IMG/VR virus record: IMGVR_UViG_3300027749_000038
Source: a virus
Direction: 5' to 3' (one strand)
DNA length: 64,000 nt
The translations under genes were made by a program, and so were the position numbers. The notes beneath the pieces are model-generated. The model ran no database searches, had not been told where the DNA came from, and saw only the letters and a program-made list of their open reading frames with translations. Of this stretch, positions 1,612 to 19,798 are shown piece by piece (the first letter of the stretch is position 1; every line of letters begins with the position of its first letter).

Positions 1612-1649
1612 TTCTTGAGTTTCCCCTCTTCCTCGCGTAATATTATTAC

Positions 1650-2207
1650 ATGATGAGCAAAACCAAAATTGTTTTAGAAGATAATCGAACTAATCGCAAA
1701 GTTGGAATGAATCGCCAAGGCCTTTCTGATTCTCCGTTCTTTGCTACCCGTAAGAATAGGGTTGCGTGGCCTACTTTACGTAAGGCTTATATGACGGATG
1801 ATAATGTTCCAGCTCTGAAGAAGTATGTTACAGGTAAAGGTCGTTCTATTGTATTCCTAGATGCTTTGTATGAGACCAAGTTGAATCGTTATGTTCGTAA
1901 AGACCCTTGGGAACGTGCTGTTTCTTTTGAATTTATGCTTCGTAAGAAAGGAGTCAAAGGAGCTATCCAGGCTTTGGTTTGGTTAGGTAATTTCCATAAC
2001 GGAAACATTGCCCATTTTGCTCCTCAATTTCCACAGATGCAATGTTGGATTGAAGCCTTAGGTTACGAAAGAGCCATGCGTTTCTTTGAAGAAGGTTGTT
2101 TTAATATCTATAAAGAAATTGCCAATATCCTATATGGAGGCAATATCTTAGATGAAGAAGTAAAAGAGTTTATTGATAATGGAAGTAAAGTTCTTGGTTT
2201 AGAATAA
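1650..2207 (+). CDS. early hypothetical protein
   Basis: 185-aa ORF starting 6 nt after the -10 box of the promoter at 1615. Confidence 0.8.
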   Translation: MMSKTKIVLEDNRTNRKVGMNRQGLSDSPFFATRKNRVAWPTLRKAYMTDDNVPALKKYVTGKGRSIVFLDALYETKLNRYVRKDPWERAVSFEFMLRKKGVKGAIQALVWLGNFHNGNIAHFAPQFPQMQCWIEALGYERAMRFFEEGCFNIYKEIANILYGGNILDEEVKEFIDNGSKVLGLE

Positions 2208-2229
2208 CTATTTGATAAATAAATATAGT

Positions 2230-2406
2230 ATGTCCTTTAATGCTTTTGTAAATTATATTCTAGATGAAATGGCTATGGTCAAGACCTCAGACCTCTCTAA
2301 TTGGCCTTATGAACACGGTGAAGGAGGAGGAGATCAAGTTCGTTCAAGGTCCAAGACAAAACCTACCAGAAGTCCGCTCAGTTCGGTAATCGCAAGCTAC
2401 AGGTGA
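2230..2406 (+). CDS. small late protein with CTS-like leader (MSFNAFVNYILDE|MA); possibly chimeric
   Basis: ATAAATA motifs at 2215/2219; 3' half overlaps a better-looking alternative frame. Confidence 0.45.
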   Translation: MSFNAFVNYILDEMAMVKTSDLSNWPYEHGEGGGDQVRSRSKTKPTRSPLSSVIASYR

Positions 2407-2502
2407 TTACCCGAAACCGCAAGAGCTATTCCCGTAAATCTAAATTCAAGGAGGATTTAGATTAGTCTGGAAGTTCCCACCAACCTGTATTACTATAACT
2501 CT

Positions 2503-2724
2503 ATGCTAAAAGAAATGATTGAAGCTATTAGGCAAACCGCTCGGGAACGTTATGAAACCTCTTATGGTTGGCAGGTCATTGAGGAATGTTATACAGACCA
2601 GGAATTAGAAGAAGATATAACAGAATATAATCTCCAGACAGTGGAAGAAGCTATTCTACATTTCGATAGCATTGCTAGACTCCGAACAGAACGATTTGAA
2701 GAAGCTCAATCAGAAATTTTTTAA
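2503..2724 (+). CDS. early acidic hypothetical protein
   Basis: ORF starts 6 nt after the TACTAT -10 box. Confidence 0.8.
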   Translation: MLKEMIEAIRQTARERYETSYGWQVIEECYTDQELEEDITEYNLQTVEEAILHFDSIARLRTERFEEAQSEIF

Positions 2725-2726
2725 TT

Positions 2727-3056
2727 ATGGCTACACGATCCTATATTGCAATCAAAGAAGAAGACAATTCTTACCAAGGTATCTATTGTCATTGGGATGG
2801 TTATCCATCTGGAGTTGGTGCTACATTAGCAGAACATTATAAACTTCAAGATAAAGTTAAAGTGTTGATTAGTAAAGGCGGTTTATCTAGCTTAGGACCC
2901 ACTCTTAAGGAAAGTGAGTTTTATACAGACCGCGGAGAAGATCTTAGAGTAAATACATTTTCCAATTCAGATGAATTAAAAGTGTATGCTAAGGAATCTT
3001 GGTGTGAATATCTCTACATCTTTGAAGACGGAAAATGGTCCACTGAGAAGATTTGA
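2727..3056 (+). CDS. conserved phage early protein (MATRSYI...IYCHWDGYP family)
   Basis: Recognisable YCHWDGYP motif family of phage hypothetical proteins. Confidence 0.85.
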   Translation: MATRSYIAIKEEDNSYQGIYCHWDGYPSGVGATLAEHYKLQDKVKVLISKGGLSSLGPTLKESEFYTDRGEDLRVNTFSNSDELKVYAKESWCEYLYIFEDGKWSTEKI

Positions 3057-3092
3057 CGAGAGGTTCCCCACAACCTCAGCTAAGATATTTAC

Positions 3093-3323
3093 ATGATGGA
3101 TTCCAAACAATACGACGCAGCACTCCTCCGCCTCTTCACCCTCAGCAACAAATACATCGTTCCTGGTTCTAAAGAGGACCGAGAGTTCCGGGAATTGTCT
3201 ATGCAGGTCGAAGCCTATCAGGACTCTCATAACCAGGAAAGTCAAGACGAATACGAGGTCCGATGCCTCCAGCAGGAGATGGACTCCTTCGAGGACCGTT
3301 TCCTCGCTTCCATGGAGCGATAA
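3093..3323 (+). CDS. early hypothetical protein
   Basis: Follows the promoter copy at 3058. Confidence 0.75.
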   Translation: MMDSKQYDAALLRLFTLSNKYIVPGSKEDREFRELSMQVEAYQDSHNQESQDEYEVRCLQQEMDSFEDRFLASMER

Positions 3324-3326
3324 GCG

Positions 3327-3917
3327 TTAAAACTTATCACGTTTAGATATATTATCCTTTGCCCATAACGGTTGAAGGTTAGTATAATGATTGGCCTTTT
3401 TAACTTCTTCTGGATTTGATAGGTCAAAGCTAGTTAGAGGTTTGATATGGTCTATGTGCCAAGTGTATAAACCATAATTCTCCCAAGACATACCTTCTTT
3501 GAATTGAGATTCTATATGTTTGACCACTTCTTCTAAAGGACATCCGAAGGTTTCTTTTGTTCTAATGGTTTTACCAGTAGCAGTTTTCTTTAAGACATCT
3601 TGAATTCTATTTCGGAGATTACATAATAACCTATAAGCCGGATCATTTGCTTTACGTTGTTTGTGATATTCATTACGGTATTGTGGGTTCTTTGAATGCC
3701 ACTTTATCATATTTGCCTTCACTCTCGGTTTGATTACATCCTTATTGTTTTCATAGTATTTTTTAGAATAACTGGAATAGTATTCTTTTCTAGAGATGTA
3801 TCTACAAGATTTGCACTTTGTTCCCTTTCCGTTCTCCGGAAAGTATTCAATAGATTTTTGTTCAGAACAAACTGAACAAACTTTTACGAGATTGGTGGTA
3901 TGGTTATTAGTTGACAT
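3327..3917 (-). mobile_element. free-standing HNH homing endonuclease (paralog of 15400..15984)
   Basis: N-terminal CxxC/CxxC, C-terminal WHIDHIKPL...NHYTNLQPLWAKDN; antisense to the early array; ATAAGTA motif upstream. Confidence 0.88.
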
Positions 3918-3931
3918 AAGCATAAATACTT

Positions 3932-3992
3932 ATCTCCAGGGACCGGGTATTGGTTAACATAAGCAATTAAACGAGCAAAGGTCCCTGGAGAT
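3932..3992. repeat. 13-bp perfect inverted repeat with 35-nt loop upstream of the HNH gene
   Basis: atctccagggacc (3932-3944) / ggtccctggagat (3980-3992). Confidence 0.95.
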
Positions 3993-4040
3993 TCTTTTTG
4001 AGGTGAGGTTCCCCGTAACTTGGGTTATGATTATTTCAAG

Positions 4041-4505
4041 ATGAGAAACACATTCACGCCCACGCAAGCCAATCAGAAACAGCACAATCGCAACGTCATT
4101 GACGTCCTCAGCTACGCCCTCGCGCATGCTGAACGAGGGACGTTGTTTACTCCTTCTAATTGTAATAACATTCCAGAGGTTGTTGTAGGAGGAGAGCAGA
4201 ATGGAGTGGTCACTTATGATACTCCTGGGAAGTTCTCTTTACCTACGAAGATCAATGGCAACCCAGTTCCTCAGAAGCATGCAGGCTTCAAGGTCCGTAC
4301 GAGGATTGTTAAGGTCCAGTCTCCTGGGAATGGAGCCTATGCTTTCAAGGTTAAGACGGGAAGAGATCTTGAAGTCACGGTGTTTTGTAATAGGCTCCAG
4401 GATGAGGGGGTGTATTACTCTTGTGAAGCTAATTGGAAGCAGGGAACTGAAGTTCTCGGGAAGATCCAATATCGCATCAACCCAAATTTAGTGACGCTTG
4501 AATAG
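4041..4505 (+). CDS. early hypothetical protein
   Basis: Start reassigned to ATG 4041 behind the promoter copy at 4003. Confidence 0.75.
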   Translation: MRNTFTPTQANQKQHNRNVIDVLSYALAHAERGTLFTPSNCNNIPEVVVGGEQNGVVTYDTPGKFSLPTKINGNPVPQKHAGFKVRTRIVKVQSPGNGAYAFKVKTGRDLEVTVFCNRLQDEGVYYSCEANWKQGTEVLGKIQYRINPNLVTLE

Positions 4506-4543
4506 AGCTTGCGGTTCCCCATAACCTCAGCTAAGATATTAAC

Positions 4544-5452
4544 ATGATGAAAGTAATTAAAGCAGCTACGAAGTTCCAACGCGTTGGTGAGATTGTTGTT
4601 CCGGATGTTTTTAATCGCCGGTTCAAGACAGGAGTTAATGATTTGGATGTAGCTTTGGGTGGAGATGGATTTGTTCCTGGTTCTACCTTTACCTTAGCTG
4701 GAGAGCCTGGAGCTGGTAAGACCACTTTGCTCCTCCAGGTTTTAGAATTGTTAGAAAAGTCTGGAAAGCATACTGCTTATATCTCCGGAGAAGAATCTAT
4801 CTATCAGTTAGCTTTTGTAGCTCATCGTCTACAATTGCAGAAGGTCTCTATTGCTAATATGACTTGTATCGAAGATATCTTTGATTCGGTTAAGGAGAAT
4901 AATTTCGGTATGATTGTTTTAGATTCTCTTCCTTCTCTTCGTTCTCGTGATGAAGATTTGAGAGGTAAAGCTCTAGAAGAATATCTTGCTAATTATATTA
5001 CCGCTACCGCTAAAGAATATGAAGTGGTTGTAGGTATTGTTCTTCATATTACTAAGCAAGGAAAGTATAAGGGTTCTACTCTTCTTCCTCATTCTGTAGA
5101 TGCTAATATCATGCTTCGTAAGTCAGAAGAAGATTATGCGGTTCGAGAAATTGAAGTAACGAAGAATCGTTTCGGTAGTGCTGGTTTTACCGTGTTTCCT
5201 ATATCTAATACCGGATTCGTATTTGAATCTTTGGAAGCATCAGATGAAGAAGGTCCTAAGGTTTCTAAAGCTAAGAAGACCTCTGATGATGTCTTAGAAT
5301 ATGTATCCAGTCATGGATCTATCAATGCTAGTGAAGCTGCTAAAGTGATTGGAGATGTATCTAAGGTACAGAAGATTATGAAAGATCTAGTGAATGCTGG
5401 ATTGCTTAATCGAGAAGGTCGCGCAGCTAATACGGTTTGGAGCGCTGCATAG
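4544..5452 (+). CDS. radA: RadA/Sms-like RecA-family ATPase lacking the Zn finger and Lon-like domain; probable C-terminal winged helix
   Basis: Walker A GEPGAGKT, YISGEES, Walker B IVLDS, KNRFG motif. Confidence 0.85.
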   Translation: MMKVIKAATKFQRVGEIVVPDVFNRRFKTGVNDLDVALGGDGFVPGSTFTLAGEPGAGKTTLLLQVLELLEKSGKHTAYISGEESIYQLAFVAHRLQLQKVSIANMTCIEDIFDSVKENNFGMIVLDSLPSLRSRDEDLRGKALEEYLANYITATAKEYEVVVGIVLHITKQGKYKGSTLLPHSVDANIMLRKSEEDYAVREIEVTKNRFGSAGFTVFPISNTGFVFESLEASDEEGPKVSKAKKTSDDVLEYVSSHGSINASEAAKVIGDVSKVQKIMKDLVNAGLLNREGRAANTVWSAA

Positions 5453-5595
5453 ACTAGCGATTCTGCGCGCTATAACGCGATTGTACAGGCTTTGTTGTCT
5501 CCTTCGATAGAGGAGCACAGGCCTCCTCTCAAAGCCTTTGTAACTCAGTTTTTCAGTTCTTGCGTTTCCCCATATCCTCTGCTAAGATTATCACA

Positions 5596-6036
5596 ATGAA
5601 AGTAACAATCACCACCACACGCGAAGTTAATCAATCCGGACGTTCCAAGATGGGACGGAGTCTTATCTATATCAAATCTCCGTTGGATGATCTCACGGAT
5701 AAGTTTGCTTGTAATTACGGAGTATATGGTTTGAAGTTTAAGAGCAAGACCTGGAATAAAGTCTGTCGTCAAGTTAATAAGACTCACATTGTTGAATTGA
5801 AGAAGTTGTTTCCAGAAGCTTTGGAGATTAAGTTCTCCGCTAAGGCTGGATGTAATTGTGGATGCAGCCCTTCCTACGTAATGAAACATGAACCCAATCA
5901 ATGGGGTAAAAACTTCTGGGTGAATATCGAAGCTTCTGAAGTAGAATTGAGTATGATATGGAGTAGTATCAATTGTCTTCGGTTCCAATTAGAATTGAAG
6001 AAGGAGATCCGAGATCACGAGACCGTTGCTGCTTGA
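5596..6036 (+). CDS. early hypothetical protein (AGCNCGCSP motif)
   Basis: Start reassigned to ATG 7 nt after the -10 box; stop overlaps the next -35. Confidence 0.8.
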   Translation: MKVTITTTREVNQSGRSKMGRSLIYIKSPLDDLTDKFACNYGVYGLKFKSKTWNKVCRQVNKTHIVELKKLFPEALEIKFSAKAGCNCGCSPSYVMKHEPNQWGKNFWVNIEASEVELSMIWSSINCLRFQLELKKEIRDHETVAA

Positions 6037-6068
6037 GGTTCCCCACATTAGCCTTTATTATCTTAATA

Positions 6069-6296
6069 ATGAACGAACAAATCACCTCCACAGTCTTCTG
6101 CCTCTTCTATGACAAGCAATATGAAGGCTCAGATCTCCTGGGTATCTTCCTTACGAAAGCAGAAGCTGAGACAGCTCGACAGACAGAGCTAGCTCGCCAC
6201 CTTAAACATCTTCCAGAAGATGAGCAAGAAGACGAACGAGAGTACTTCGAAGTGATCTTATGCATCACTGAAGTGCCAGTAGGCAAACTCCGGTAA
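6069..6296 (+). CDS. early small protein (VFxLxxxxxEGSDLLGIFxTKAEA family)
   Basis: Behind the promoter copy at 6033. Confidence 0.8.
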   Translation: MNEQITSTVFCLFYDKQYEGSDLLGIFLTKAEAETARQTELARHLKHLPEDEQEDEREYFEVILCITEVPVGKLR

Positions 6297-6336
6297 TCTT
6301 CTTGCAGTTCCTCGTATAAACCGTTAAGATATTTAC

Positions 6337-6552
6337 ATGATGAAGAACATGATTGATCCAAATTGGAACCTCCTCGCAGAAAATCAATTAGTCGGGGATG
6401 GATGTGGGTTTTGGGTTTTCCGGGACCTGTATGAAACTCAAGAGGGAAAGCGAGTTTCTGTTAAGAAGAGCAAGACCATTTGTGAAAAAGTGTATAAGAA
6501 TTCTGGGAAGACCGAAGCCCAGATCCTGGAAGAAAATCTCCTGAGCAAGTAA
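6337..6552 (+). CDS. early hypothetical protein
   Basis: Behind the promoter copy at 6302. Confidence 0.8.
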   Translation: MMKNMIDPNWNLLAENQLVGDGCGFWVFRDLYETQEGKRVSVKKSKTICEKVYKNSGKTEAQILEENLLSK

Positions 6553-6590
6553 GCCTGGCAGTTCCCATTATAAACCCCTAAGATATTTAC

Positions 6591-6950
6591 ATGATGAAAG
6601 CACAGAAAAACACGTTAATCGCAAGCGCAGACAAGATGACCATTCGGTATCGGGAAGCTATGATGGATTTCCTGAATGATACCCAAGGAGATCAATCAGT
6701 AGAAGATTTCGCTCGAGACCTTCTTAATCTAAGCAGAGCTCTTCAGAATCTTTCTTCTAAGGTTTCTAATACATCTTTAATAGCTTTCAAAGATGAATTA
6801 GCTGCTGGATATACTATGATGATGTTTGATAGTAAAGAGTTTGATCAGCTAGAAGCTTGGAGCGTTGCTGGAGAAGATTTCCAGATTGTTATCTTCCGCG
6901 AAGATGGATCTCCAGTAGGTGTTGTTCAAAAGAAAGAAACCAACTGGTAA
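6591..6950 (+). CDS. early hypothetical protein
   Basis: Behind the promoter copy at 6556. Confidence 0.8.
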   Translation: MMKAQKNTLIASADKMTIRYREAMMDFLNDTQGDQSVEDFARDLLNLSRALQNLSSKVSNTSLIAFKDELAAGYTMMMFDSKEFDQLEAWSVAGEDFQIVIFREDGSPVGVVQKKETNW

Positions 6951-7028
6951 GATTTGTTATACCTATGATTATTCTAATCTTATTTTGGTTTGTTTTTATG
7001 TTACACTTTCAGGATAAGTAATAAAAAT

Positions 7029-7526
7029 ATGAGAAACAAAGATACTATTTTATTAGAACAAGCTTATGAAGCAGTCTATAAACAAAAGACTCTTAATGAA
7101 TCTATAAGCCAAGACGAAGCTAATAATCTTATACAAGGTTTTAATATGCTTGGACCCCGTAAACAAAAGGCATTTGAAGATTTACAAGGTTTAGTTGGTA
7201 AAGAAGTATCTTTGTCTAGGGCCACAAGACTCAAACAATCTACTGGTTACGGGCGCGATGATGGTAGCGCAACAGTTCCTGGTTCAGGTGGTAGTGTTGC
7301 TCATACAGAGACAGAATCAGAGGATAGTGTATTCGCACAAGGTGTTATCCAAGACGTTAAACAATCTTCTGGTGAAGATGATTACACCAAGAATGGTAAT
7401 TTGATTTTAACCATTAACGATCAAGACTATAATGTTAATCAAGGGACCACAGTTAAGGTAAAGTTCTTGGAAGATTCTACAGCTGAAGTTCATGCAGCCG
7501 GTGGTAGAAGTTTCTACAATCAGTAA
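7029..7526 (+). CDS. putative virion-internal protein with MRNKDTILLEQAY leader
   Basis: ATAAGTA at 7014; leader shared with five other genes. Confidence 0.75.
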   Translation: MRNKDTILLEQAYEAVYKQKTLNESISQDEANNLIQGFNMLGPRKQKAFEDLQGLVGKEVSLSRATRLKQSTGYGRDDGSATVPGSGGSVAHTETESEDSVFAQGVIQDVKQSSGEDDYTKNGNLILTINDQDYNVNQGTTVKVKFLEDSTAEVHAAGGRSFYNQ

Positions 7527-7527
7527 C

Positions 7528-8073
7528 ATGAGAACCAAAGATTCTATTTTATTAGAACAGGCTTATGCAAAGGTATTGGAGTCTAATGCTTTGAGCGTTA
7601 ATAAGGCAAAGGTTAATAGAGACCCAGAAGTCCTGGCAAAGATGTTTAAGAACCTTTCTACTAGAGCTGAGTTCTTTGGTTCTATACACGGTTTAGCTTT
7701 TGGAGAAGAAAATTGGTCTAGAGAGAAGTCTATTAGTAAAGACCTAAAGAATGGAAATCTCCAAGATCTATTGATGGAAGCTCCTCAAGTAATTAAAGAT
7801 TTAGCCAATCAAGGATATGATTGGACTCGTATCTTTCTCAGCACACATAAGGTATTAGACCCAGAACATCCAAACATGGGTCGTACAGCTCAACTAACTG
7901 ATATTACCAACACAGTTACTTTAATTCATAACTCTAGTCATATACTCATCAGAGCTTATGATTCATTTGGTATTATGCCATCTAAGGAATTGAAAGTAGA
8001 CAAGACAAGTATTCCAGGTGCTTTGAATAAAGCCGAGTCCTTGCTCGCGAGTCTCTACGGCGTTCAACAGTGA
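7528..8073 (+). CDS. putative virion-internal protein with MRTKDSILLEQAY leader
   Basis: Shared leader; 1 nt after the upstream stop. Confidence 0.75.
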   Translation: MRTKDSILLEQAYAKVLESNALSVNKAKVNRDPEVLAKMFKNLSTRAEFFGSIHGLAFGEENWSREKSISKDLKNGNLQDLLMEAPQVIKDLANQGYDWTRIFLSTHKVLDPEHPNMGRTAQLTDITNTVTLIHNSSHILIRAYDSFGIMPSKELKVDKTSIPGALNKAESLLASLYGVQQ

Positions 8074-8104
8074 CCTTCCCCACATCATCCTGTAAGATAT
8101 TTAC

Positions 8105-8383
8105 ATGATGAAAAAGAACATTCGTGTTGAAGCAGTAAAAGAAGCGCTCCGTAATCCTTATACGTTTCCAGGAGCTTATCCATTAACCTTTGTAGCATAT
8201 GACGGTCGCTTATGTGGTAAGTGTGTTCGCAGTAACTTCCGAGCTGTGGTTAATGATACCAGGGATAATAAGGGTCCATGGAACCTACATGTAGATGTCC
8301 TCTGGGAAGGGGTAGCTTATTGTAATGATTGCGGAACAGAGATTGAATCCGCTTATGGGTCGGTTGAAGAGGAGGTAGAATAA
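8105..8383 (+). CDS. early protein with CxxC...CxxC (Zn-ribbon-like)
   Basis: PYTFPGAYP, CGKC, CNDC; promoter copy at 8070. Confidence 0.8.
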   Translation: MMKKNIRVEAVKEALRNPYTFPGAYPLTFVAYDGRLCGKCVRSNFRAVVNDTRDNKGPWNLHVDVLWEGVAYCNDCGTEIESAYGSVEEEVE

Positions 8384-8384
8384 T

Positions 8385-8606
8385 ATGACTAAAGAACCAT
8401 CACAAATTATCTTGCAAGTTGCAGCAGCTTATGGCTTTGAAGTAAAGTATGTAGAACCTTTGGATAAGTGGATCATCAAAGCCAAATTGTCTGGATGGTC
8501 TGGAGTTGAATTCTATTGGGATTCTACCTATAATGAACAAGACTTCTTTGATGAATTGAGATCTGCCTTTAATCAAGAAGGAGTAGAAAAACAAATCACA
8601 TACTAA
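8385..8606 (+). CDS. hypothetical protein
   Basis: 73-aa ORF 1 nt after the upstream stop. Confidence 0.7.
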   Translation: MTKEPSQIILQVAAAYGFEVKYVEPLDKWIIKAKLSGWSGVEFYWDSTYNEQDFFDELRSAFNQEGVEKQITY

Positions 8607-8607
8607 T

Positions 8608-12785: not shown

Positions 12786-12960
12786 TGAAAAGACTTTGGT
12801 ATCTATAGCAGACCAGGTGGCTATCATTAGAACGATTATCATTTTAACATACCTTATTACCAATTTGTTTATAGTGGCAGGGATTATCAGACATTGGAAT
12901 ACTTGAGTTAATAGCAACGTGGGTGATAATACATTATAGAATAATAAGGTAAAGTTTAAT

Positions 12961-13260
12961 ATGGACCAAGAGTTTTTAAGCATAGAAGAATTCTTACAAC
13001 AAATTCGATGGAGAGTACAACATACTAGTAAGGCTATAGATGATAAGAACTATGAGCTAGCAGAAGAACATAGTAAGATAGTAAATGATGTATTACTACC
13101 CACAGCTTTAAGATTTAACTTTATAGCAGAAGCTATAAGAACGGTATCAGAAGAAATGGAAAAGATAATGGCTTTGGATACTAGTAAAGCAAAGAAGAGA
13201 AAAGCCTTTACGATAACGAGCGACAATCTAACCGAAGAGATACCAAAGGAATTGGTATAA
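12961..13260 (+). CDS. hypothetical helical protein
   Basis: 99-aa ORF. Confidence 0.65.
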   Translation: MDQEFLSIEEFLQQIRWRVQHTSKAIDDKNYELAEEHSKIVNDVLLPTALRFNFIAEAIRTVSEEMEKIMALDTSKAKKRKAFTITSDNLTEEIPKELV

Positions 13261-13697
13261 ACAACCGATAGATAAATTAAGGTAATAGCAACGCAGTCTA
13301 TATTAACGCATACCTTAATAGAGCCAAGGTTTATAGTACCTCCTTTATTAGAGCATCCCTAATACTACAGACCTCTTAACTAATAGAACTAGGATAATAA
13401 AGACCCTAGGTTCCAGAGTATCCTAAGAGATAAACAAAGTAAGGTCTGACCTTAATAGTAAAGTCCTACCTAACAAGAGAAAAAAGACAAAGGGTAATGT
13501 AAAGGTAAAAGTAAATGGTTGGTGAAGAAGAGATTAAAGACAAAGAGTCAATAAAAAGGGTGATGTGAAGGTAATCAAGTACAGAAGAATGGTAAACCAA
13601 TGTATTAGCCTTAGGGAACTTACCTTAACTTCAACCAATTTCTACAAATGACTAATCGACTATTGCTTTCCCAGGGTCCCAAAGGTATAATAGAACT

Positions 13698-13907
13698 ATG
13701 TCCAACCCAACTAGTAATGAAGCAACGGAACCGAAAATCTGGGGTCCTATGGGTCGGAAGATCTATGAAATGGATCCTAATAGACCCCCCTCAGAATTGG
13801 CGATGTATGGAATCACCCCGACCAATACCCCCTTGAGTCCGGATGGATCAGCCCTCCTTTCCCCCTCTAAGGCGGAGGAGACTCTATACCCCCCGGAAGG
13901 GAGCTGA
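13698..13907 (+). CDS. early Pro-rich hypothetical protein
   Basis: TTGCTT-17 bp-TATAAT-6 nt-ATG. Confidence 0.6.
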   Translation: MSNPTSNEATEPKIWGPMGRKIYEMDPNRPPSELAMYGITPTNTPLSPDGSALLSPSKAEETLYPPEGS

Positions 13908-13981
13908 GTTCGATTCTCCCCTAGATCAGGAGATGAAAGATCCTCGTTGAGGTTCCCTCTATCATCCTCTATGATATTTAC

Positions 13982-14296
13982 ATGATGAAAAACACGATAG
14001 CTGACGCGAACGAAATTACGAACGAGATCTTCAATGAATACGAATACGATCTTCGAAACATATCTTTTAAAGAATGTTTAGAATTTGCGAAAGATTGTAC
14101 AAAAGATCAATGGTTAGAAGAAGCTCAAGATTTCATTAATGCAGATATTGAAGCCTGGACATTAGAAAATAATGATTTAGAAGTTGGAGAAGATACAGAA
14201 GAAGCTCAAGTTTTATTAGTTAAATTGTTAGATGTCGAATATGATAAGATCTTAAAACATCTGATGAAAGATGTTACGATCGAATACGCTAACTAA
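13982..14296 (+). CDS. early acidic hypothetical protein
   Basis: Promoter copy at 13947. Confidence 0.8.
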   Translation: MMKNTIADANEITNEIFNEYEYDLRNISFKECLEFAKDCTKDQWLEEAQDFINADIEAWTLENNDLEVGEDTEEAQVLLVKLLDVEYDKILKHLMKDVTIEYAN

Positions 14297-14316
14297 ATCA
14301 TAGAAAGAAACATAAG

Positions 14317-14577
14317 ATGAAATCTATCAAGATCGAAGCGAAGCGCGTAACTGAAAAGCTCTTTACACAAGTAAAGTATCAAAAGTATTCTCCAGAGAAT
14401 CTAGAATCTGCTTACTATGAAGTATATTCATATTGGAGAATCTTTAATAACGATGTAGATATACGTCTCGTCTTAGACGATCAAGTTCTATTTGATAACG
14501 GCGAGATCGTTAATTACGATAGTAAGCATCCGCTCGTTCTCATCAATACATTAGTAGATCCAGAGACATATCGATAG
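14317..14577 (+). CDS. hypothetical protein
   Basis: 86-aa ORF. Confidence 0.7.
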   Translation: MKSIKIEAKRVTEKLFTQVKYQKYSPENLESAYYEVYSYWRIFNNDVDIRLVLDDQVLFDNGEIVNYDSKHPLVLINTLVDPETYR

Positions 14578-14647
14578 CACATTCCGTGGAACCTCACGAC
14601 AAAAAGAAGTTCGTGAGTTTCCCCCTATAAACCTCTAAGATATTTAC

Positions 14648-15295
14648 ATGATGAAAAAAGTATATCGTTTGAAGCTCGACGCCAAAGCCAAAGCCGCAAA
14701 GGCTAAGATCAAGGAAGTCTCTGGTGGAGACCAGTTCAAGAACCTTAAGGATTGGGTGGTCTTCTTTAAAGAGAATGAGCGCCTCCCTTCCCAGAAGATC
14801 ACCTGTGCTTCTTGCAAGACTAAGCAGACCTCGATGTTCGGAGACAACCTGAAGCGAACGCTTCCCAAGTACGGGTCTATCGAAGGTCTGCTTACGAAGT
14901 TCGAATGCAGTGATTGTCGTAAGGCTAAAGCCCCGGCGAAAGAAGCTAAACAAGTTAAGGTTCCGAAGAGTGGTAAAGCTAAGGCAGGTGATATTAACGT
15001 ATCAGGTAATACTGTAGAGGATTACCTAACCGTGGATGATATCGAGGACCGTAAAGAGAAGGTCCGTGCTACTCTACCCAAGTTTGATCCGGATCGTAAG
15101 CCAGTTAAGGTCAATTTCAAAGACCAAGACGAAGTAGAAGAGCTTACCCGGGGAGTTTGTCAGCGTCCCGATATCTATCTGGATGCCGGTTGTTCCCAGT
15201 GCCCCATTTCCCAGTACTGCATCGCGGGATGTAAGGACATGAGAAGGAAGCCAGAGGATACCCGGAAGTCCCAGGGACCGAAGCGTAAGAAGTAA
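14648..15295 (+). CDS. early basic Zn-binding protein (CASC, CSDC, C-terminal Cys cluster)
   Basis: Multiple CxxC motifs, Lys-rich; promoter copy at 14613. Confidence 0.8.
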   Translation: MMKKVYRLKLDAKAKAAKAKIKEVSGGDQFKNLKDWVVFFKENERLPSQKITCASCKTKQTSMFGDNLKRTLPKYGSIEGLLTKFECSDCRKAKAPAKEAKQVKVPKSGKAKAGDINVSGNTVEDYLTVDDIEDRKEKVRATLPKFDPDRKPVKVNFKDQDEVEELTRGVCQRPDIYLDAGCSQCPISQYCIAGCKDMRRKPEDTRKSQGPKRKK

Positions 15296-15312
15296 TTTCA
15301 TCATGGGCGGAG

Positions 15313-15381
15313 AACTTCTTAGGAAGGCCTTCCCTCTTGTGTGAGAGGGACGTTTTTCATCATGTACCTTCCTAAGAAGTT
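15313..15381. repeat. 15-bp perfect inverted repeat enclosing a 7-bp hairpin, between convergent genes
   Basis: aacttcttaggaagg/ccttcctaagaagtt; inner tccctct/agaggga. Confidence 0.9.
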
Positions 15382-15399
15382 TCTTTCTCTTATATATGT

Positions 15400-15984
15400 T
15401 TAGTGTGTAGCACCTTTAGAAAGATTGTCTTTAGCCCATAACGGTTGGAGGTTGGTATAGTGATTAGCTCTTTTAACTTCTTCTGGGTCTAATAGATTAA
15501 AACTAGACAATGGTTTGATGTGATCGATATGCCAAGTATACAAACCATGATTTTTCCAAGACATACCTTCTTTGAATTGAGATTCGATATGTTTAACCAC
15601 TTCTTCTGTAGAACATCCAAAAGTTACTTTTGTTGTTCTGACAACTTTGCCGTTATATATGTTCTTCAGAACCTTATCTATTCTATTTCTAAGACTACAC
15701 AACAATTTATAAGAGGGATCTTTTGCTTTGCGTTGTTTGTGATAGTTATATGTTTTGAGAGTTTTTCTATAAGCTCTTCGTCTCTCTTTGAAGGATTCTC
15801 TTGATCTTTGAATCTTTTGTTGAGTTCTTACCTTTTCTCGATTGTTTGCATTATATGTTCTACAATTTAAGTATCTACACTTTTTACATTGATTTCCCAC
15901 TTTATAAAAAAGATCAATGGATTTTAGTTCTGAACAAATAGAACAAACTTTAGCGAGATCGGTAGTATGGTTATTAGTTAACAT
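15400..15984 (-). mobile_element. free-standing HNH homing endonuclease (paralog of 3327..3917)
   Basis: Same N-terminus (TNNHTTxLxKVCSxCSE) and WHIDHIKPL...NHYTNLQPLWAKDN. Confidence 0.88.
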
Positions 15985-15998
15985 AGGTATAAATATTT

Positions 15999-16059
15999 AT
16001 CCCCAAGGACCGGGTTTTGGTTAACATAGGAAATTAAATGAGCGAAGGTCCTTGGGGAT
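15999..16059. repeat. 13-bp perfect inverted repeat with 35-nt loop upstream of the HNH gene
   Basis: atccccaaggacc / ggtccttggggat; homolog of 3932-3992 with two compensatory pair changes. Confidence 0.95.
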
Positions 16060-16181
16060 TTGATTCCCTTCCCGGGAGTTTTCATTCCCTGCCCAATTAT
16101 CTATAACTCGTTCTCAATCAAGGTTCTTCCCCTAGAGAAAAAAAGATGGAAGTTCCCTGTACTTTGACTCATAATATTCTC

Positions 16182-16358
16182 ATGATTCGTTCCTTGTCCC
16201 TCTTCGCGTTCCTGGTGTCCCTCACCTACCTCACCTGCCCGGACATCCTCACCTACGCAACCCTCACCGTCCTAGCAGTCCTTTCCCTGGCGATCCACCT
16301 TTCCCACTACGTCCTCCTGGGACTGTTGTTCTTCGCAGTCATCCTCATCGCTCGATAA
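16182..16358 (+). CDS. early small membrane protein
   Basis: Very hydrophobic 58 aa; promoter copy at 16147. Confidence 0.7.
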   Translation: MIRSLSLFAFLVSLTYLTCPDILTYATLTVLAVLSLAIHLSHYVLLGLLFFAVILIAR

Positions 16359-16396
16359 GCCTTGTGTTTCCCCTCTTCCTCCTCCATAATAGAAAC

Positions 16397-16549
16397 ATGA
16401 TTAACGAATACGACATGTCCACCGTAGACAAGCTCAACCTCATCGCTCAGGTGTTCGGGAAGATCGCGATCAACTTCTGGCCGGTGATTGTCCTGGGAAT
16501 CGTTGCAGCAGTGATCCTCCACAAGCATGAGACCCGCAGGACGCGCTAA
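16397..16549 (+). CDS. early single-TM protein
   Basis: Promoter copy at 16362; hydrophobic segment followed by a basic tail. Confidence 0.7.
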   Translation: MINEYDMSTVDKLNLIAQVFGKIAINFWPVIVLGIVAAVILHKHETRRTR

Positions 16550-16557
16550 TTATTAAC

Positions 16558-16788
16558 ATGGGACTCGAGAAAGCAATTCAATATGGTAAAGAACACCGTC
16601 AGCCTTATCGCGGAAGTAAAGCTTGGGATTCTCATTGTAGGAATCACAACGCTTGTGACTATTGTAGGAACAATCGACTTCACGCCGACCAAGTCCGGGA
16701 ATATAGTGCCCGAGAAGAACCCCTGGATTGGGAACTCGACCAGAGCCTCTATCCAGAGTGGTTTGAGCTAGACGGAGTCGCGGAATAG
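16558..16788 (+). CDS. conserved phage protein (KAIxxGKEHRxPYRGSKA..CRNH..C.YC family)
   Basis: Recognisable Cys/His motif family of unknown function. Confidence 0.8.
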   Translation: MGLEKAIQYGKEHRQPYRGSKAWDSHCRNHNACDYCRNNRLHADQVREYSAREEPLDWELDQSLYPEWFELDGVAE

Positions 16789-16825
16789 AGTGGAGGTTCC
16801 CCACATTAACCCTTAAGATATTAGC

Positions 16826-17011
16826 ATGATGAACGAAACAGAGAAGAAGTACAAAGCCAACGTCAAGCGCCTCGAACGGTTCGCCAAAGCTTTCACCAAG
16901 CTGAAGGTGAAGTTCCCCGAGGTCGTAGTCAGAGGAGACCAGAACGGATTTGCCCAGGCGACCATCCACGGTCTCCCAGGAGAGCAAGCCCGGGCCTATT
17001 TGAGCAACTAA
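16826..17011 (+). CDS. early hypothetical protein
   Basis: Promoter copy at 16791. Confidence 0.75.
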   Translation: MMNETEKKYKANVKRLERFAKAFTKLKVKFPEVVVRGDQNGFAQATIHGLPGEQARAYLSN

Positions 17012-17050
17012 GCCTTGCGGTTCCCCACATTAACCCTTAAGATAATCACA

Positions 17051-17248
17051 ATGAGTTACAAAGTCCTCACCCGTTCACTCGCCACCGACAAGTACCCCTA
17101 CCGGACCCATTCCGAGCACGAGACCCTCTGGCAGGCTATGTCAGTAGCTTCCCGGCTTGAGAAGAACACCGAGCTGGATGTCCTGGTCGAGCTCACCGAC
17201 AATGAGATCGTCAAAGTTCCCTTCAACGTCCTCGCTCTTGAAGCTTGA
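17051..17248 (+). CDS. early hypothetical protein
   Basis: Promoter copy at 17015. Confidence 0.75.
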   Translation: MSYKVLTRSLATDKYPYRTHSEHETLWQAMSVASRLEKNTELDVLVELTDNEIVKVPFNVLALEA

Positions 17249-17280
17249 GCTTCCCCACATAAACCCCTAAGATAAACACC

Positions 17281-17466
17281 ATGACAGACATCCTCGAATT
17301 CCGCAAGCAACTCGCAGCCAAGCACCCTAAGCTCGAACAGGTGATGAGAGGGCCAGCGCCTTCCCTCAAACTGCAAGCCACGATGCAGAAGTTCAGCCAG
17401 CAGCTCTGCTTGGCTAGGGCCAAGCAGAGGGAAGGAGTGGTCCTCAAGACTCCCGAGCGTGAGTAA
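17281..17466 (+). CDS. early hypothetical protein
   Basis: Promoter copy at 17245. Confidence 0.7.
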   Translation: MTDILEFRKQLAAKHPKLEQVMRGPAPSLKLQATMQKFSQQLCLARAKQREGVVLKTPERE

Positions 17467-17504
17467 GTGTTGAGCTTCCCCCTTATAACCCTTAAGATAT
17501 TTAC

Positions 17505-17888
17505 ATGATGAATGACACGATGATTGCCCGCACCGAACTCGAAGAGCTGATGGATGAGTATTGTGACTACCACAAGGACGTCCACGGTGTCAAGGCTCGT
17601 TGGATCTACAACACCGGAGTCACGGTAGAGGAGCTGAAGAGGATGCTCGCTAGCCTGGAACGTCAGTACCACGAGCAGGTCGAGTTCGAGCGCAAGCAGT
17701 CGGCTCGCAATGAGCAGGCAGCTCGGGAGCAGATCCGGGTCCTCATGCAGCACGGGGCTCAGGACGTGGCGATGGCGATCCGCTGGTTACACGATGCTCA
17801 GGACACCCAAGGGGACAATCGGTTCCTCGACTTCGACCTGGGATGTACCTACGGCTTCATCGACAGCCTTCTCAAGAACGGCCTCTAA
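17505..17888 (+). CDS. early conserved hypothetical protein (Y.DYHKDVHGVKAR motif)
   Basis: Promoter copy at 17470. Confidence 0.8.
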   Translation: MMNDTMIARTELEELMDEYCDYHKDVHGVKARWIYNTGVTVEELKRMLASLERQYHEQVEFERKQSARNEQAAREQIRVLMQHGAQDVAMAIRWLHDAQDTQGDNRFLDFDLGCTYGFIDSLLKNGL

Positions 17889-17932
17889 GAGAGGTGTTGA
17901 GCTTCCCCAGTATCTCCTTTAAGATCTTAACA

Positions 17933-18169
17933 ATGAGCAATACGATTACTCAAGCAGACCTCTACAACGACTACCTCACCGCCTTTCGAGCCTTGCACCC
18001 TTGTGACGCCAGAGACCTGAGACGCTGTGCCAGGATAGAGCTTCTGAGTCGCGGGGACCGAGAGATTAATTCTGGTGACGTAGACAACCTGGTGTATACC
18101 TGGTTCAAACTATACGAAAGCTTCAGCCAGGAAGTGATCGACGGACTCCGAGACTATTACCTCGACTAA
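17933..18169 (+). CDS. early hypothetical protein
   Basis: Promoter copy at 17897. Confidence 0.75.
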   Translation: MSNTITQADLYNDYLTAFRALHPCDARDLRRCARIELLSRGDREINSGDVDNLVYTWFKLYESFSQEVIDGLRDYYLD

Positions 18170-18241
18170 AGACTTTAGTCGGGGTAAATTACCTCGACTA
18201 AGGTGTTGAGGTTCCCCAGTACATCCTTTAATATCTTAACA

Positions 18242-18538
18242 ATGAAAGACACCATGACCACAAAAGCAACCATCATCGAATCCGTCAAGACTGCAATTGC
18301 CACAGCAACGACCAACCTTATCAACTTCAGTAATGGAGGCATGTTGGTTGATGAAGAACTCGATATGGCTGTACATGCCTTTGTTGTTAATGGAGTTCTC
18401 TTCTCTACAGGATGGGCTGATACTACTCACTACAGCTTCCTGCAGAATGATGGCCCTCTAACTTGCGATGATGCTAAATTACTTCTCTGGTGGTTAGAAC
18501 AGAAAGATACTTGGATAAACAAGATTGGTTGCAACTAG
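18242..18538 (+). CDS. early hypothetical protein
   Basis: Promoter copy at 18206. Confidence 0.75.
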   Translation: MKDTMTTKATIIESVKTAIATATTNLINFSNGGMLVDEELDMAVHAFVVNGVLFSTGWADTTHYSFLQNDGPLTCDDAKLLLWWLEQKDTWINKIGCN

Positions 18539-18595
18539 GACCCCAAGCTCCTCCTCTGGTGGCTCGAACAGGGTGACACCAAGATCAACAAGTAG
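18539..18595 (+). pseudogene. orphan 3' relic DPKLLLWWLEQGDTKINK* duplicating the upstream gene's C-terminus
   Basis: Matches DAKLLLWWLEQKDTWINK of 18242..18538 but uses GC3-rich codons; no start codon. Confidence 0.75.
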
Positions 18596-18633
18596 TCCTT
18601 GCAGTTCCCCACTTAGTCCTCTAATATTATTAC

Positions 18634-18945
18634 ATGATGAAGAACACCAAGAAAGAGTTAGTCAAGGTCAGCAGCCAGTTCCGCCTCTTAGCTCGGCATG
18701 CAGGCTGTGTAGAGATCATTGAGGAACGCTATGCCAACCCTAGCAAGCCTAACCTCACCAAGCTCTGGGTCGTGAATGGGGTCCATGAGTTCAAGCAACA
18801 AGGGCATGCTCGCACCTATATGCGTATGCTGGCAGACAGGGTCGGTGGGGATCAGAAACTTACTGACGAGACCTACAAGGCAGCTTGGGATAATGTCATT
18901 CCCACCTACACCCCAGAAGCTAAGGCAGCAGCCATTCTGGGTTGA
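18634..18945 (+). CDS. early hypothetical protein
   Basis: Promoter copy at 18599. Confidence 0.8.
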   Translation: MMKNTKKELVKVSSQFRLLARHAGCVEIIEERYANPSKPNLTKLWVVNGVHEFKQQGHARTYMRMLADRVGGDQKLTDETYKAAWDNVIPTYTPEAKAAAILG

Positions 18946-18979
18946 GCTTCCCCACATCCTCAGCTAATATAGATACAAG

Positions 18980-19237
18980 ATGAAGAACACATACACCCGA
19001 GTCCTCAGCACGAAGCAAGTCAACGTCCTCGCCAAGGAAGCCAAGCGCGTCCAGTACATCGTCAATAAGGTCCGCGTCTTCCACGCCTCTTCGGTGGATG
19101 CCATCACGGTGCTTGACAATGAGGACAATGCCCTGGTGTTCAAAGCCCTCCGCGCGAACAGAGACACCTGGATAGTGACCTTCTCGAAGACCTACTGGCA
19201 GAGTCCAGAGGACGCCGTACTTGCCCAGGGCATCTAA
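18980..19237 (+). CDS. early hypothetical protein
   Basis: Promoter copy at 18942. Confidence 0.8.
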   Translation: MKNTYTRVLSTKQVNVLAKEAKRVQYIVNKVRVFHASSVDAITVLDNEDNALVFKALRANRDTWIVTFSKTYWQSPEDAVLAQGI

Positions 19238-19279
19238 GTAGTCCGTGAGCTTCCCCATTACCTAAGCTAAGATATAAAC

Positions 19280-19498
19280 ATGATGAAGAACAAATACATC
19301 CAGTCCGAAGCAGCCCAGTCCCACGCCGCAGAGATCCTCAAAGGAGGACATGTCTCAGTGGCTGAGGCAGTCCAGATCATCCTCCAATACATCTCCACCT
19401 GCCGTGGCCGAGCGAACCACGCCGACGGAGTCTCCTACATGGAGGCCGTGCTCGAGCTAGTGTGTCAGGCCTGTGAGCCAGAGCAGGTGGTCCTCTAA
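19280..19498 (+). CDS. early hypothetical protein
   Basis: Promoter copy at 19245. Confidence 0.75.
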   Translation: MMKNKYIQSEAAQSHAAEILKGGHVSVAEAVQIILQYISTCRGRANHADGVSYMEAVLELVCQACEPEQVVL

Positions 19499-19540
19499 GT
19501 AGGCCTTGCGGTTCCCCATCTCCTCTGCTACTATTATTAC

Positions 19541-19798
19541 ATGATGAAGAACGACATGAACCACACCACCGCTGAAGACCATACCACCCCAATCGTCGGC
19601 GCCTCCTACCTCTGGCAGGGCATGCCCTGTGCAGTCCTGGAGACGAGGCCTAGTGAGCTCCGCACCTACACGTGGGATGTGAAGGTGGAGTACTTCAGCA
19701 AGGCCGACAAGTGCTACCTCTCTCTTTGGACTCCGTGGCTTCCAGGATGCTTCCTCCTGACCTTCAAGCCTGGTGGTCAGCTGACCCGAGTAGCGTAG
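19541..19798 (+). CDS. early hypothetical protein (last of the array)
   Basis: Promoter copy at 19506. Confidence 0.75.
   Translation: MMKNDMNHTTAEDHTTPIVGASYLWQGMPCAVLETRPSELRTYTWDVKVEYFSKADKCYLSLWTPWLPGCFLLTFKPGGQLTRVA

Follow-up and report, generated by a model that had tools for sequence, protein, structure and literature searches.

What happens when a promoter and a start codon form one element, and can that element also be the joint at which genes are exchanged? These questions are raised by positions 1613-19541 (+ strand) of IMG/VR virus record IMGVR_UViG_3300027749_000038, a 64,000-nucleotide stretch of DNA that we refer to as the window. Here, 26 repeated units, each comprising promoter-like hexamers and an ATG, stand before small genes. 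An initial annotation described the array and interpreted it as leaderless early gene modules, with each promoter-plus-AUG unit acting as both expression signal and possible recombination junction. The array is confirmed; the interpretation, taken as a whole, is partly supported. We consider it probable that the units are promoters for host RNA polymerase fused to start codons, that the resulting messages are leaderless or nearly so and probably early, and that the units double as recombination junctions.

Each unit has the layout (T/G)TGnGn, TTCCCC, 11 nucleotides, a -10 element resembling TAAGAT and, 6, 7 or 9 nucleotides further on, an ATG. For example, the unit at 4507 reads GCTTGCGG TTCCCC ATAACCTCAGC TAAGAT ATTAAC ATGATG. 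A loose regular expression finds 26 units, 24 of them strong and two to three marginal. Beyond the array it matches one unrelated site on the - strand and two stray sites on the + strand (23454 and 42653). A position weight matrix (PWM) made from the units yields 24 matches of 23-42 bits, none on the - strand, and one weak match (14 bits) outside the array. The strict pattern TTCCC-N12-TAWKAT occurs 20 times, always on the + strand and inside the array, compared with an expectation of 0.30 and a maximum of two in 100 shuffles. Hence, the claimed 26-copy array stands. Spacing is rigid. TTCCCC and the -10 element are 11 nucleotides apart in 25 of the 26 units, and 12 apart in unit 12 (13660). 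The gap between the -10 element and ATG is 6 nucleotides in 18 units, 7 in six and 9 in two. At the -35 position, TTG is found in 16 units, GTG and TGG in four each, and GAG in one. Three units are marginal: those at 2466 (TGGAAG/TTCCCA/TACTAT), 13660 (TTCCCA, with the 12-nucleotide spacing) and 16145 (TTCCCT/CATAAT). At the last, an in-frame ATG at 16146 could start the open reading frame (ORF) upstream of the motif. One of the stray matches resembles a 27th unit, off the array at 42653-42949 (TTGATC-TTCCCC-N11-TACTAT-N8-ATG, then an 85-codon ORF).

As first reported, 14 cassette genes start with ATGATG, 13 in the form ACATGATG and one as GCATGATG. Twelve units have, in the TAA of TAAGAT, a stop codon in frame with the gene, 12 nucleotides 5' of the ATG. 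Hence, the starts of those ORFs cannot lie further upstream. The four cases in which the upstream gene was said to stop within the next -35 box (6033, 8070, 17245 and 18942) all hold: the TGA codons concerned end genes at 6036, 8073, 17248 and 18945. The reported lack of Shine-Dalgarno (SD) motifs is correct and does not discriminate. GGAG, GAGG or AGGA, at -18 to -4, precedes 0 of the 22 cassette genes found by gene call, compared with only 10 of the 78 other genes in the window. Since the remaining 68 also lack one, SD sites are rare across the whole phage, and their absence is no evidence for the cassette genes specifically.

Relatives of the phage allow the unit to be described more generally. 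One, G001, is a 227-kb IMG/VR record, rated complete, with about 40 units of the same geometry on one strand, according to a pattern scan. A scan of metagenome contigs identified 39 more loci, each with between one and eight units. Together, the window, 80 kb of G001 and these 39 loci provide 199 distinct units, which we refer to as the pooled set. Questions that concern a whole genome (sigma factors, RNA polymerase, MotA/AsiA and WhiB) were addressed in G001. The gp23-type major capsid protein of G001 is only ~35% identical to that of any cultured T4-like phage. Judged by this protein, the phage appears to be deep-branching, uncultured and T4-like, and the unit belongs to a clade of such phages. 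The window itself encodes collagen-repeat fibre proteins, glycosyltransferases, a split-intein NrdA, NrdB and a fusion of DUF6267 to a nucleotidyltransferase. The nearest relatives of the fusion are in T4-like cyanophages (~28% identity).

Where would transcription start? In sigma70-type holoenzymes, the -10 hexamer spans -12 to -7, so that +1 is position 7 after it, and a pyrimidine-purine step is preferred. In the pooled set, the gap between -10 element and ATG is 6 nucleotides in 142 units, 7 in 35, 8 in one and 9 in 12. The dinucleotide 6-7 nucleotides after the -10 element is CA in 183 of the 199 units and TA in 10, wherever the ATG lies. The classes are closely related: the 9-nucleotide form (CAAGATG) is one base from the 6-nucleotide form (CATGATG), and the 7-nucleotide form (ACAATG) is a 2-nucleotide deletion. 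Because CA is constant while the ATG shifts, the conserved feature is the predicted start point, with the ATG 0, 1 or 3 nucleotides away. Note that a PWM selects what it was built from. We therefore also chose sites only by TAnnnT-N5-CATG. Among 176 such sites, 129 have TTCCC exactly 11 nucleotides 5' of the -10 element; the other offsets tested (9 to 19 nucleotides) hold 0 to 3 each. Hence, the proposal that promoter geometry places the AUG near the 5' end is upheld, with the predicted +1 on the ATG, or 1-3 nucleotides before it, throughout the 199 units. Published computational work recognises leaderless genes by a Pribnow box 6-8 nucleotides from the start codon (PMC6028130).

The initial annotation spoke of leaderless early modules. 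Leaderless design is not special to these, since boxes of the T4 late type are found 5-8 nucleotides before many other starts. ATAAGTA occurs 16 times in the window, and 12 copies precede, by no more than 15 nucleotides, the ATG of an ORF of 60 codons or more; for ATAAATA, the same is true of 14 of 36 copies. Before many non-cassette genes, ATAA(A/G)TA is 5-8 nucleotides from the ATG, most commonly 5. Examples are TATAAATA-N6-ATG at 40556 and TATAAATA-N5-ATG at 42955 (-), and such boxes are near ATG codons at 40535-40558, 42955-42975 (-), 33979-33998, 52090-52109, 22741-22760 and 20078-20100. In T4 late promoters, TATAAATA occupies -13 to -6 (PMC1524935). With a 5-nucleotide gap, +1 would again fall on the A of ATG. 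Two unrelated promoter types, each at its own correct distance from the ATG, are the best internal support for the leaderless interpretation. The placement of the late-type boxes predicts leaderless late messages too, and the design looks genome-wide. At the start of the G001 major capsid gene there is no SD site, but no clean late box either. Hence, the late-promoter interpretation rests on the window's own genes.

Late-type boxes also accompany some neighbours of the cassettes. Two free-standing HNH genes, at 3327-3923 (-) and 15400-15984 (-), are related to each other and endonuclease VII-like (phrog_1035), and each has such a box just before its ATG. Positions 7029-12785 hold paralogous genes with a shared N-terminus (MR[DN][RK]DTILLEQAY or MKSKDQQLLEEAY) and different bodies. 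These paralogues have late-type boxes and are without the TTCCCC unit.

Do the cassettes encode real proteins? For 12 of the 26 cassette genes, G001 has an orthologue that is again welded to a unit, with 44-98% amino acid (aa) identity and in scrambled order. Substitutions between such pairs are concentrated at third codon positions (e.g. 20/12/62 and 46/22/110 at the three positions). The gene of unit 4 (4041-4505), for which the former figures apply, is 86% identical to its G001 orthologue. Identities are 64% for unit 1 (1650-2207; promoter-welded in G001), 80% for unit 20 (17505-17888) and 98% for unit 24 (18980-19237). The ATPase gene of unit 5 keeps its welded unit in orthologues from three other contigs. 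In a third contig, the orthologue is 69% identical and the geometry is the same, while the spacer differs and GGGAGC replaces TTG. On this evidence, the cassette ORFs are real genes, with starts as marked by the unit. The proteins are mutually unrelated, except for the first 2-4 codons, which are common to many units. Pfam and PHROGs searches with the larger cassette proteins returned almost nothing beyond phrog_18452, phrog_21968 and phrog_26333; the first of these matches a 92-aa protein and is annotated 'DNA ligase'. Hence, the cassettes precede mostly small ORFs without a family, with one unit per gene or per mini-operon of two or three genes.

Whether units serve as recombination junctions was assessed, as the initial annotation had proposed, by aligning relatives. 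We compared 1.5-19.9 kb of the window with metagenome contigs of 85-98% identity, taking the unit as -50 to +14 of the ATG. Relatives of at least 85% identity differ from the window by 27 distinct insertions, deletions or replacements. Both ends are in units for 15 events, one end for three and neither for nine. In total, 33 of 54 breakpoints lie in units, which make up 9.2% of the sequence (p = 4e-21). By this comparison, the recombination-junction proposal holds up. Often, the one unit of the shorter genome can be aligned, over 33-53 bp, with each of the two units that flank the event in the longer genome. Chimeric units are also visible. Relative L076 has no cassette 6337-6552; its unit matches the unit at 6300 on the left and that at 6554 on the right, switching inside TTCC. 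At the units at 4507, 16360 and 19504, the sequence of the window switches at the box, matching one copy in the relative on the 5' side and the other copy on the 3' side. In the comparison with G001, the order of homologous genes is scrambled, and units mark the limits of local alignments. These duplicated and chimeric units are stronger evidence than positional enrichment.

Individual events illustrate the pattern. An 893-bp block, containing gene 3093-3323 and the neighbouring HNH gene, is missing in L056 and L051, with both ends in units. At unit 5 (4507), relatives carry an extra 205-bp cassette between two copies of the unit. Similar arrangements are seen at unit 14 (extra cassettes of 901 bp or 323 bp), unit 16 (419-425 bp, in five relatives' loci) and unit 26 (471 bp or 622 bp). 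There are insertions of 924 bp at unit 1 in L051 and of 201 bp at unit 19 in L055. L052 and L056 have 564 bp of different sequence in place of positions 6044-6558. Six relatives' loci lack gene 13982-14296, and their unit is fused straight to the orthologue of 14317. The body of gene 17505-17888 is replaced, exactly from +6 to the next unit, in four relatives' loci, and that of the unit 22 gene differs from relatives from +28 onward.

The nine events without an end in a unit are of several kinds. They include the two HNH genes, which are present or absent in close relatives, and junctions in the 7029-12785 family that end at shared 5' ends (9405/9414 and 10398/12479). These 5' ends look like a second kind of recombination patch. 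Short microhomologies are also included, such as the TAAGAT of a -10 element pairing with the TAAGAT of a stop codon (6948 and 8093). The outcome is seen in L052, a 95%-identical relative. At its positions 12565-12635 (-), aligned to window 6920-6990 and 8055-8125, the 8105 orthologue is directly 3' of the previous stop (…TGG TAAGAT TATTAC ATGATG). Here, the stop codon doubles as the -10 element and the TTCCCC box is absent. A further observation concerns gene 18242-18538, which ends ...KLLLWWLEQKDTWINKIGCN. A G+C-rich remnant directly 3', at 18539-18596, encodes ...KLLLWWLEQGDTKINK. Positions 18242-18596 look like a partial allele replacement, with the old 3' end, encoding a related C-terminus, left over.

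What reads the units? The initial annotation identified the upstream hexamer as a -35 box. A TTG-type element is common but weaker than claimed: TTG is found in 57-70% of units, whereas TTCCC is found in >98%. The third position of the hexamer is G in 192 of the 199 units, and many G001 units have GGGAGC or GGTCCC in place of TTG. We prefer to describe the upstream element as a 12-bp box, (T/G)(T/G)G(A/C)G(G/C)TTCCCC, at -35 to -24. This half of the unit may have a reader other than sigma region 4. In G001, the only sigma factor is region-2-only (gp55-like), and neither a sigma region 4 nor a multisubunit RNA polymerase gene (no phage beta homologue) was found. Hence, host polymerase with a host sigma factor is the likely reader. 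MotA_activ (PF09114) and AsiA (PF09010) have no match in G001 at E <= 1. The TTCCCC sequence could be a host-specific promoter element, a MotA-box-like activator site, a repressor or shut-off site, or a preferred crossover point. Nothing favours the originally suggested shut-off factor over an activator or host-specific element. Outside units, the window has seven extra copies of TTCCCC on the + strand and two on the - strand, compared with ~5 expected per strand. Hence, the sequence is not avoided, and nothing suggests negative selection against a genome-wide target.

Upstream of the -35 element there is no AT-rich (UP-like) tract; the consensus is the preceding stop followed by G/C-rich bases (...TAAGCC) and has low information. 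The region shows no excess of any other sigma70-like promoter class, nor of terminator-like sites (15, compared with 15.6 expected), and six units, folded with their flanks, have z-scores of -1.7 to +1.8 and no common hairpin. A GAGG...CCTC hairpin within the unit was considered and dropped, since the 199 units show no complementary covariation.

We propose the following sequence of events. Host RNA polymerase would read the units (about -44 to +11), probably as early promoters, with one for each small ORFan gene or mini-operon. The parts involved would be the upstream box at -35 to -24, a C-rich and G-poor spacer, the TAAGAT-type -10 element and the conserved C(-1)A(+1). In most units, A(+1) would be the A of ATG, so that the mRNA starts at the AUG. 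In the variants with 7- and 9-nucleotide gaps, it would start 1-3 nucleotides before the AUG, and translation would be leaderless. The usual start, ATGATGAA(A/G)AAC, would supply a second AUG and A-rich early codons. Note that no terminator separates a unit from the preceding gene, the end of which lies within the upstream box or a little before it. Longer read-through transcripts must therefore exist too. Because a unit of 50-55 bp recurs every 200-900 bp, it is also a patch of homology, which the phage recombination machinery would use to delete, insert and swap gene bodies.

Some of our observations weigh against this proposal. Given how few SD sites the phage has overall, its host must be capable of internal initiation without them. 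Hence, leaderless initiation is not required to explain translation. The L052 orthologue of 8105 lacks the upstream half and keeps only the -10/ATG half; evidently, this gene can be expressed by read-through. Judged by E. coli sigma70 rules, the unit reaches 8/12, and a generic sigma70 scan finds 2 of the 26 units, no excess over shuffles; TTG is missing at -35 in 30-43% of units. Almost all intergenic DNA in the array is promoter, and a null model of breakpoints between genes explains much of the positional enrichment.

A different account is that the units are mainly intercistronic translation-start regions within one long early transcript. The AU-rich, unstructured TAAGATATTTAC would be an SD-independent landing site for ribosomes, and promoter activity would be minor or absent. 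The rarity of SD sites in all window genes, the lack of terminators between cassettes, the unstructured units and the L052 orthologue all fit, as do promoterless genes of the array (2727, 8608, 9121 and 14317) that are also without SD sites. Yet this leaves unexplained the invariant TTCCCC, 29-24 nucleotides upstream at rigid spacing, and the TTG-type element at 17 nucleotides. Nor does it account for CA at the predicted +1 when the ATG moves 1 or 3 nucleotides, or for a T4-late-like box at its own appropriate distance before other genes. We consider this account improbable.

Somewhat better placed, though still unlikely, are activator-dependent promoters of the middle type. Here, a phage-encoded or virion-delivered factor would bind TTCCCC, replacing or supplementing contact between sigma region 4 and the -35 element, like MotA/AsiA; transcripts would still begin at the ATG. 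The near-invariance of TTCCC relative to TTG, and the G001 units with GGGAGC or GGTCCC, are in keeping with this. So are the rigid 11 nucleotides to the -10 element, near the 12 +/- 1 bp of the MotA box (centred at -30; PMC2988021), and a -10 element as stringent as in T4 middle promoters. However, G001 has no MotA_activ or AsiA match, the box is unlike TGCTT, and no other enriched sigma70-like class is available in the region to express the activator first. Moreover, the third -35 G is nearly universal, and TTG, GTG or TGG at 17-nucleotide spacing dominates. Finally, the repeats could be passive relics, with no present function, of serial tandem duplication of one ancestral cassette. The common first codons (MMKN) and stop-codon context (TAAGTAG) do extend the repeat beyond a minimal promoter. 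We regard this as very improbable. The downstream proteins are unrelated beyond the first 2-4 codons, which many units have in common, and the unit is kept where orthologous proteins are only 44-86% identical and spacers differ. Conservation is position-specific, with boxes conserved and the spacer free, rather than uniform. Promoters fused to start codons, read by host polymerase, are the interpretation that we prefer.

Codon composition sets the cassette genes apart. Their mean G+C content at third codon positions (GC3) is ~0.55, rising to 0.6-0.8 in the 16-20 kb block, compared with ~0.26 for the rest of the window. The split is sharp between 16000-20000 and the rest of the phage (GC3 ~0.25), and a similar one was noted at L035 13821-16506. 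The 80 kb of G001 scanned (40-120 kb) contains 14 tRNA genes, ten with U34 (wobble) anticodons. U at the wobble position of tRNA suits A-ending codons. We infer a host of higher G+C content than the phage. Host-type codons in the cassette genes would then reflect either their being read before phage tRNAs build up or their acquisition from sources with more G+C.

Among 50,697 deposited phage genomes, there was no match for window 1-20000 (megablast) or for a single unit (blastn). By these searches, the unit seems to be carried by no cultured relative. In 185,579 bacterial and archaeal genomes, neither a scan for the unit pattern nor a protein scan with the ATPase (4544-5452) found anything; hence, there is no prophage copy and no host hint. 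WhiB was not found in G001, which is not evidence against an actinobacterial host. Rfam has no match at E <= 0.1 over window 1-24000. Elsewhere, a transfer-messenger RNA gene at 39107-39506 (RF00023, 65.7 bits, E 7e-25; the 3' end of the match is incomplete) matches the standard family only, and therefore provides no lineage-specific clue to the host.

The units are described individually below, all on the + strand, with the coordinates of each unit and its gene or genes. Unit 1 (1615-2207; TTGAGT-TTCCCC-N11-TAATAT-N6-ATGATG; PWM score 34.5) precedes gene 1650-2207 (185 aa). Marginal unit 2 (2468-2724; TGGAAG-TTCCCA-N11-TACTAT-N6-ATG; PWM score 23.0) precedes gene 2503-2724 (73 aa), and the promoterless gene 2727-3056 is next. 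Unit 3 (3058-3323; GAGAGG-TTCCCC-N11-TAAGAT-N6-ATGATG) precedes gene 3093-3323 (76 aa, GC3 0.65). Unit 4 (4003-4505; GTGAGG-TTCCCC-N11-TATGAT-N9-ATG, with CAAGATG) serves gene 4041-4505 (154 aa). The gene of unit 5 (4509-5452; TTGCGG-TTCCCC-N11-TAAGAT-N6-ATGATG), at 4544-5452 (302 aa), encodes a P-loop ATPase of the RecA/KaiC/DnaB type. Unit 6 (5560-6036; TTGCGT-TTCCCC-N11-TAAGAT-N7-ATG) has gene 5596-6036 (146 aa), with its TGA in the next -35 element, that of unit 7 (6033-6296; TTGAGG-TTCCCC-N11-TATTAT-N7-ATG; gene 6069-6296, 75 aa). Unit 8 (6302-6552; TTGCAG-TTCCTC-N11-TAAGAT-N6-ATGATG) and unit 9 (6556-6950; TGGCAG-TTCCCA-N11-TAAGAT-N6-ATGATG) precede genes 6337-6552 (71 aa) and 6591-6950 (119 aa). 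Unit 10 (8070-8832; GTGACC-TTCCCC-N11-TAAGAT-N6-ATGATG) heads gene 8105-8383 (92 aa) and then two promoterless genes, 8385-8606 (with a GGAGG site) and 8608-8832. Unit 11 (8836-9116; TTGTGT-TTCCCC-N11-TAAGAT-N6-ATGATG) precedes gene 8871-9116 (81 aa).

Marginal unit 12 (13662-13907; TTCCCA-N12-TATAAT-N6-ATG; gene 13698-13907, 69 aa) has spacing off by one and was excluded from the PWM. Around its start, positions 13261-13700 are 440 A+T-rich nucleotides with no convincing ORF and repeated TAAGGT-like words, 78-84% conserved in relatives. Unit 13 (13947-14577; TTGAGG-TTCCCT-N11-TATGAT-N6-ATGATG) has gene 13982-14296 (104 aa), then the promoterless gene 14317-14577. Unit 14 (14613-15295; GTGAGT-TTCCCC-N11-TAAGAT-N6-ATGATG; gene 14648-15295, 215 aa) is followed by the only good terminator-like hairpin, at 15331-15350. 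Marginal unit 15 (16147-16358; TGGAAG-TTCCCT-N11-CATAAT-N6-ATG) has gene 16182-16358 (58 aa), the start of which may be 16146. Unit 16 (16362-16549; TTGTGT-TTCCCC-N11-CATAAT-N6-ATG) precedes gene 16397-16549 (50 aa), and unit 17 (16791-17011; TGGAGG-TTCCCC-N11-TAAGAT-N6-ATGATG) precedes gene 16826-17011 (61 aa, GC3 0.73). The gene of unit 18 (17015-17248; TTGCGG-TTCCCC-N11-TAAGAT-N7-ATG), at 17051-17248 (65 aa), has its TGA in the -35 element of unit 19 (17245-17466; TTGAGC-TTCCCC-N11-TAAGAT-N7-ATG; gene 17281-17466, 61 aa). Unit 20 (17470-17888; TTGAGC-TTCCCC-N11-TAAGAT-N6-ATGATG) serves gene 17505-17888 (127 aa, phrog_21968). Unit 21 (17897-18169; TTGAGC-TTCCCC-N11-TAAGAT-N7-ATG) has gene 17933-18169 (78 aa), and unit 22 (18206-18538; TTGAGG-TTCCCC-N11-TAATAT-N7-ATG) has gene 18242-18538 (98 aa, GC3 0.45). 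The TGA of the unit 23 gene (18599-18945; TTGCAG-TTCCCC-N11-TAATAT-N6-ATGATG; gene 18634-18945, 103 aa) is in the -35 element of unit 24 (18942-19237; TTGAGC-TTCCCC-N11-TAATAT-N9-ATG, with CAAGATG; gene 18980-19237, 85 aa). Unit 25 (19245-19498; GTGAGC-TTCCCC-N11-TAAGAT-N6-ATGATG; gene 19280-19498, 72 aa) and unit 26 (19506-19798; TTGCGG-TTCCCC-N11-TACTAT-N6-ATGATG; gene 19541-19798, 85 aa) end the array. It is closed by 305 ORF-free, G+C-rich nucleotides (19796-20100), with a strong hairpin plus T-run at 19811-19866. This segment is 90-100% conserved in close relatives, and its first 98 nucleotides are conserved in G001. It matches nothing in Rfam and folds with a z-score of only -1.4; a terminator together with a small RNA is one possibility.

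Two points seem to us of real interest: the reader of the TTCCCC box, and whether leaderless expression is genome-wide. If +1 is the A of AUG, dozens of early genes, and probably late ones too, would be expressed without a leader. The distance from promoter to ATG would then be a sequence signature for guessing the type of host of an uncultured phage, and the unit a compact "promoter plus start" part of 45 bp with which to express genes there. With the TTCCCC box, there is a handle for finding a new RNA-polymerase-directed factor or promoter element. A bolder extension, to which we give only tentative credence, is that this clade of T4-like lake phages as a whole runs on leaderless messages. 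Its host would have ribosomes that handle leaderless mRNA well (e.g. actinobacterial or Deinococcus-like), and TTCCCC would be a new promoter element read by a phage or host factor, not by sigma region 4. We know of no T4-like phage of an actinobacterial or Deinococcus-like lineage.

How does the array compare with known systems? Our literature searches turned up no description of leaderless genes, early or late, in T4-like phages. In Actinobacteria and Deinococcus-Thermus, such genes are frequent ('group C'; Lomsadze et al. 2018, PMC6028130; de Groot et al. 2014, PMC4007540). These resemble the cassette genes in having a TAnnnT box 6-8 nucleotides before the start, no SD site and an ATG start. 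However, they are scattered host genes with a weak or absent -35 element, whereas the array is one long stereotyped repeat, with the TTCCCC box, in a phage. Thermus phage phiYS40 makes leaderless middle and late transcripts (as summarised in PMC3594737). It too is a large phage that relies on host RNA polymerase and has many messages without a leader, and it is thus dependent on leaderless translation. Unlike our phage, it is not T4-like, and its leaderless class is middle/late and experimentally mapped; in the array, transcription start sites are only predicted, and the class is presumed to be early and, probably, late as well. No repeated recombining cassette has been described for phiYS40. 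T4 middle promoters are similar in geometry only. Their MotA box, centred at -30, is 12 +/- 1 bp from a sigma70 -10 element (Hinton 2010, PMC2988021), and TTCCCC, at -29 to -24, is likewise a fixed short distance from a stringent -10 element. The MotA box is (a/t)(a/t)(a/t)TGCTTtA, whereas the array consensus is TTGAGGTTCCCC. In addition, motA and asiA were not found in G001, a -35-like TTG usually accompanies the array box, and T4 middle transcripts have leaders with SD sites.

The closest parallel, drawn in the initial annotation, is with the promoter-early stem-loop (PeSL) cassettes of the T4-type phages RB49/phi1, T4/PST and KVP40/nt-1 (Arbiol et al. 2010, PMC2839356; Comeau et al. 2014, PMC4122927). 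In both, a repeated early-type promoter precedes small ORFans in a plastic region of a T4-like genome. Also in both, the ends of indels and replacements between close relatives fall in the repeats, and chimeric repeats remain. To this extent the parallel holds, but the units are not PeSLs in the strict sense. PeSLs have an adjacent stable stem-loop (often GGGG...CCCC, a terminator or attenuator), which the units lack. The units are also without an AT-rich upstream tract, leader or ribosome-binding site, with promoter and ATG directly adjoining. They depart from the E. coli promoter consensus and have the invariant TTCCCC box, and the repeat reaches into the first 3-4 codons. The PeSL idea is that phage accessory genes are cut and pasted at repeated regulatory units. 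The recombination data extend this idea to a distant freshwater clade, in which a stem-loop is not needed for shuffling. We conclude that the array works like PeSLs in genome evolution but is no PeSL; it is a stem-loop-free and, by its predicted start points, leaderless variant.

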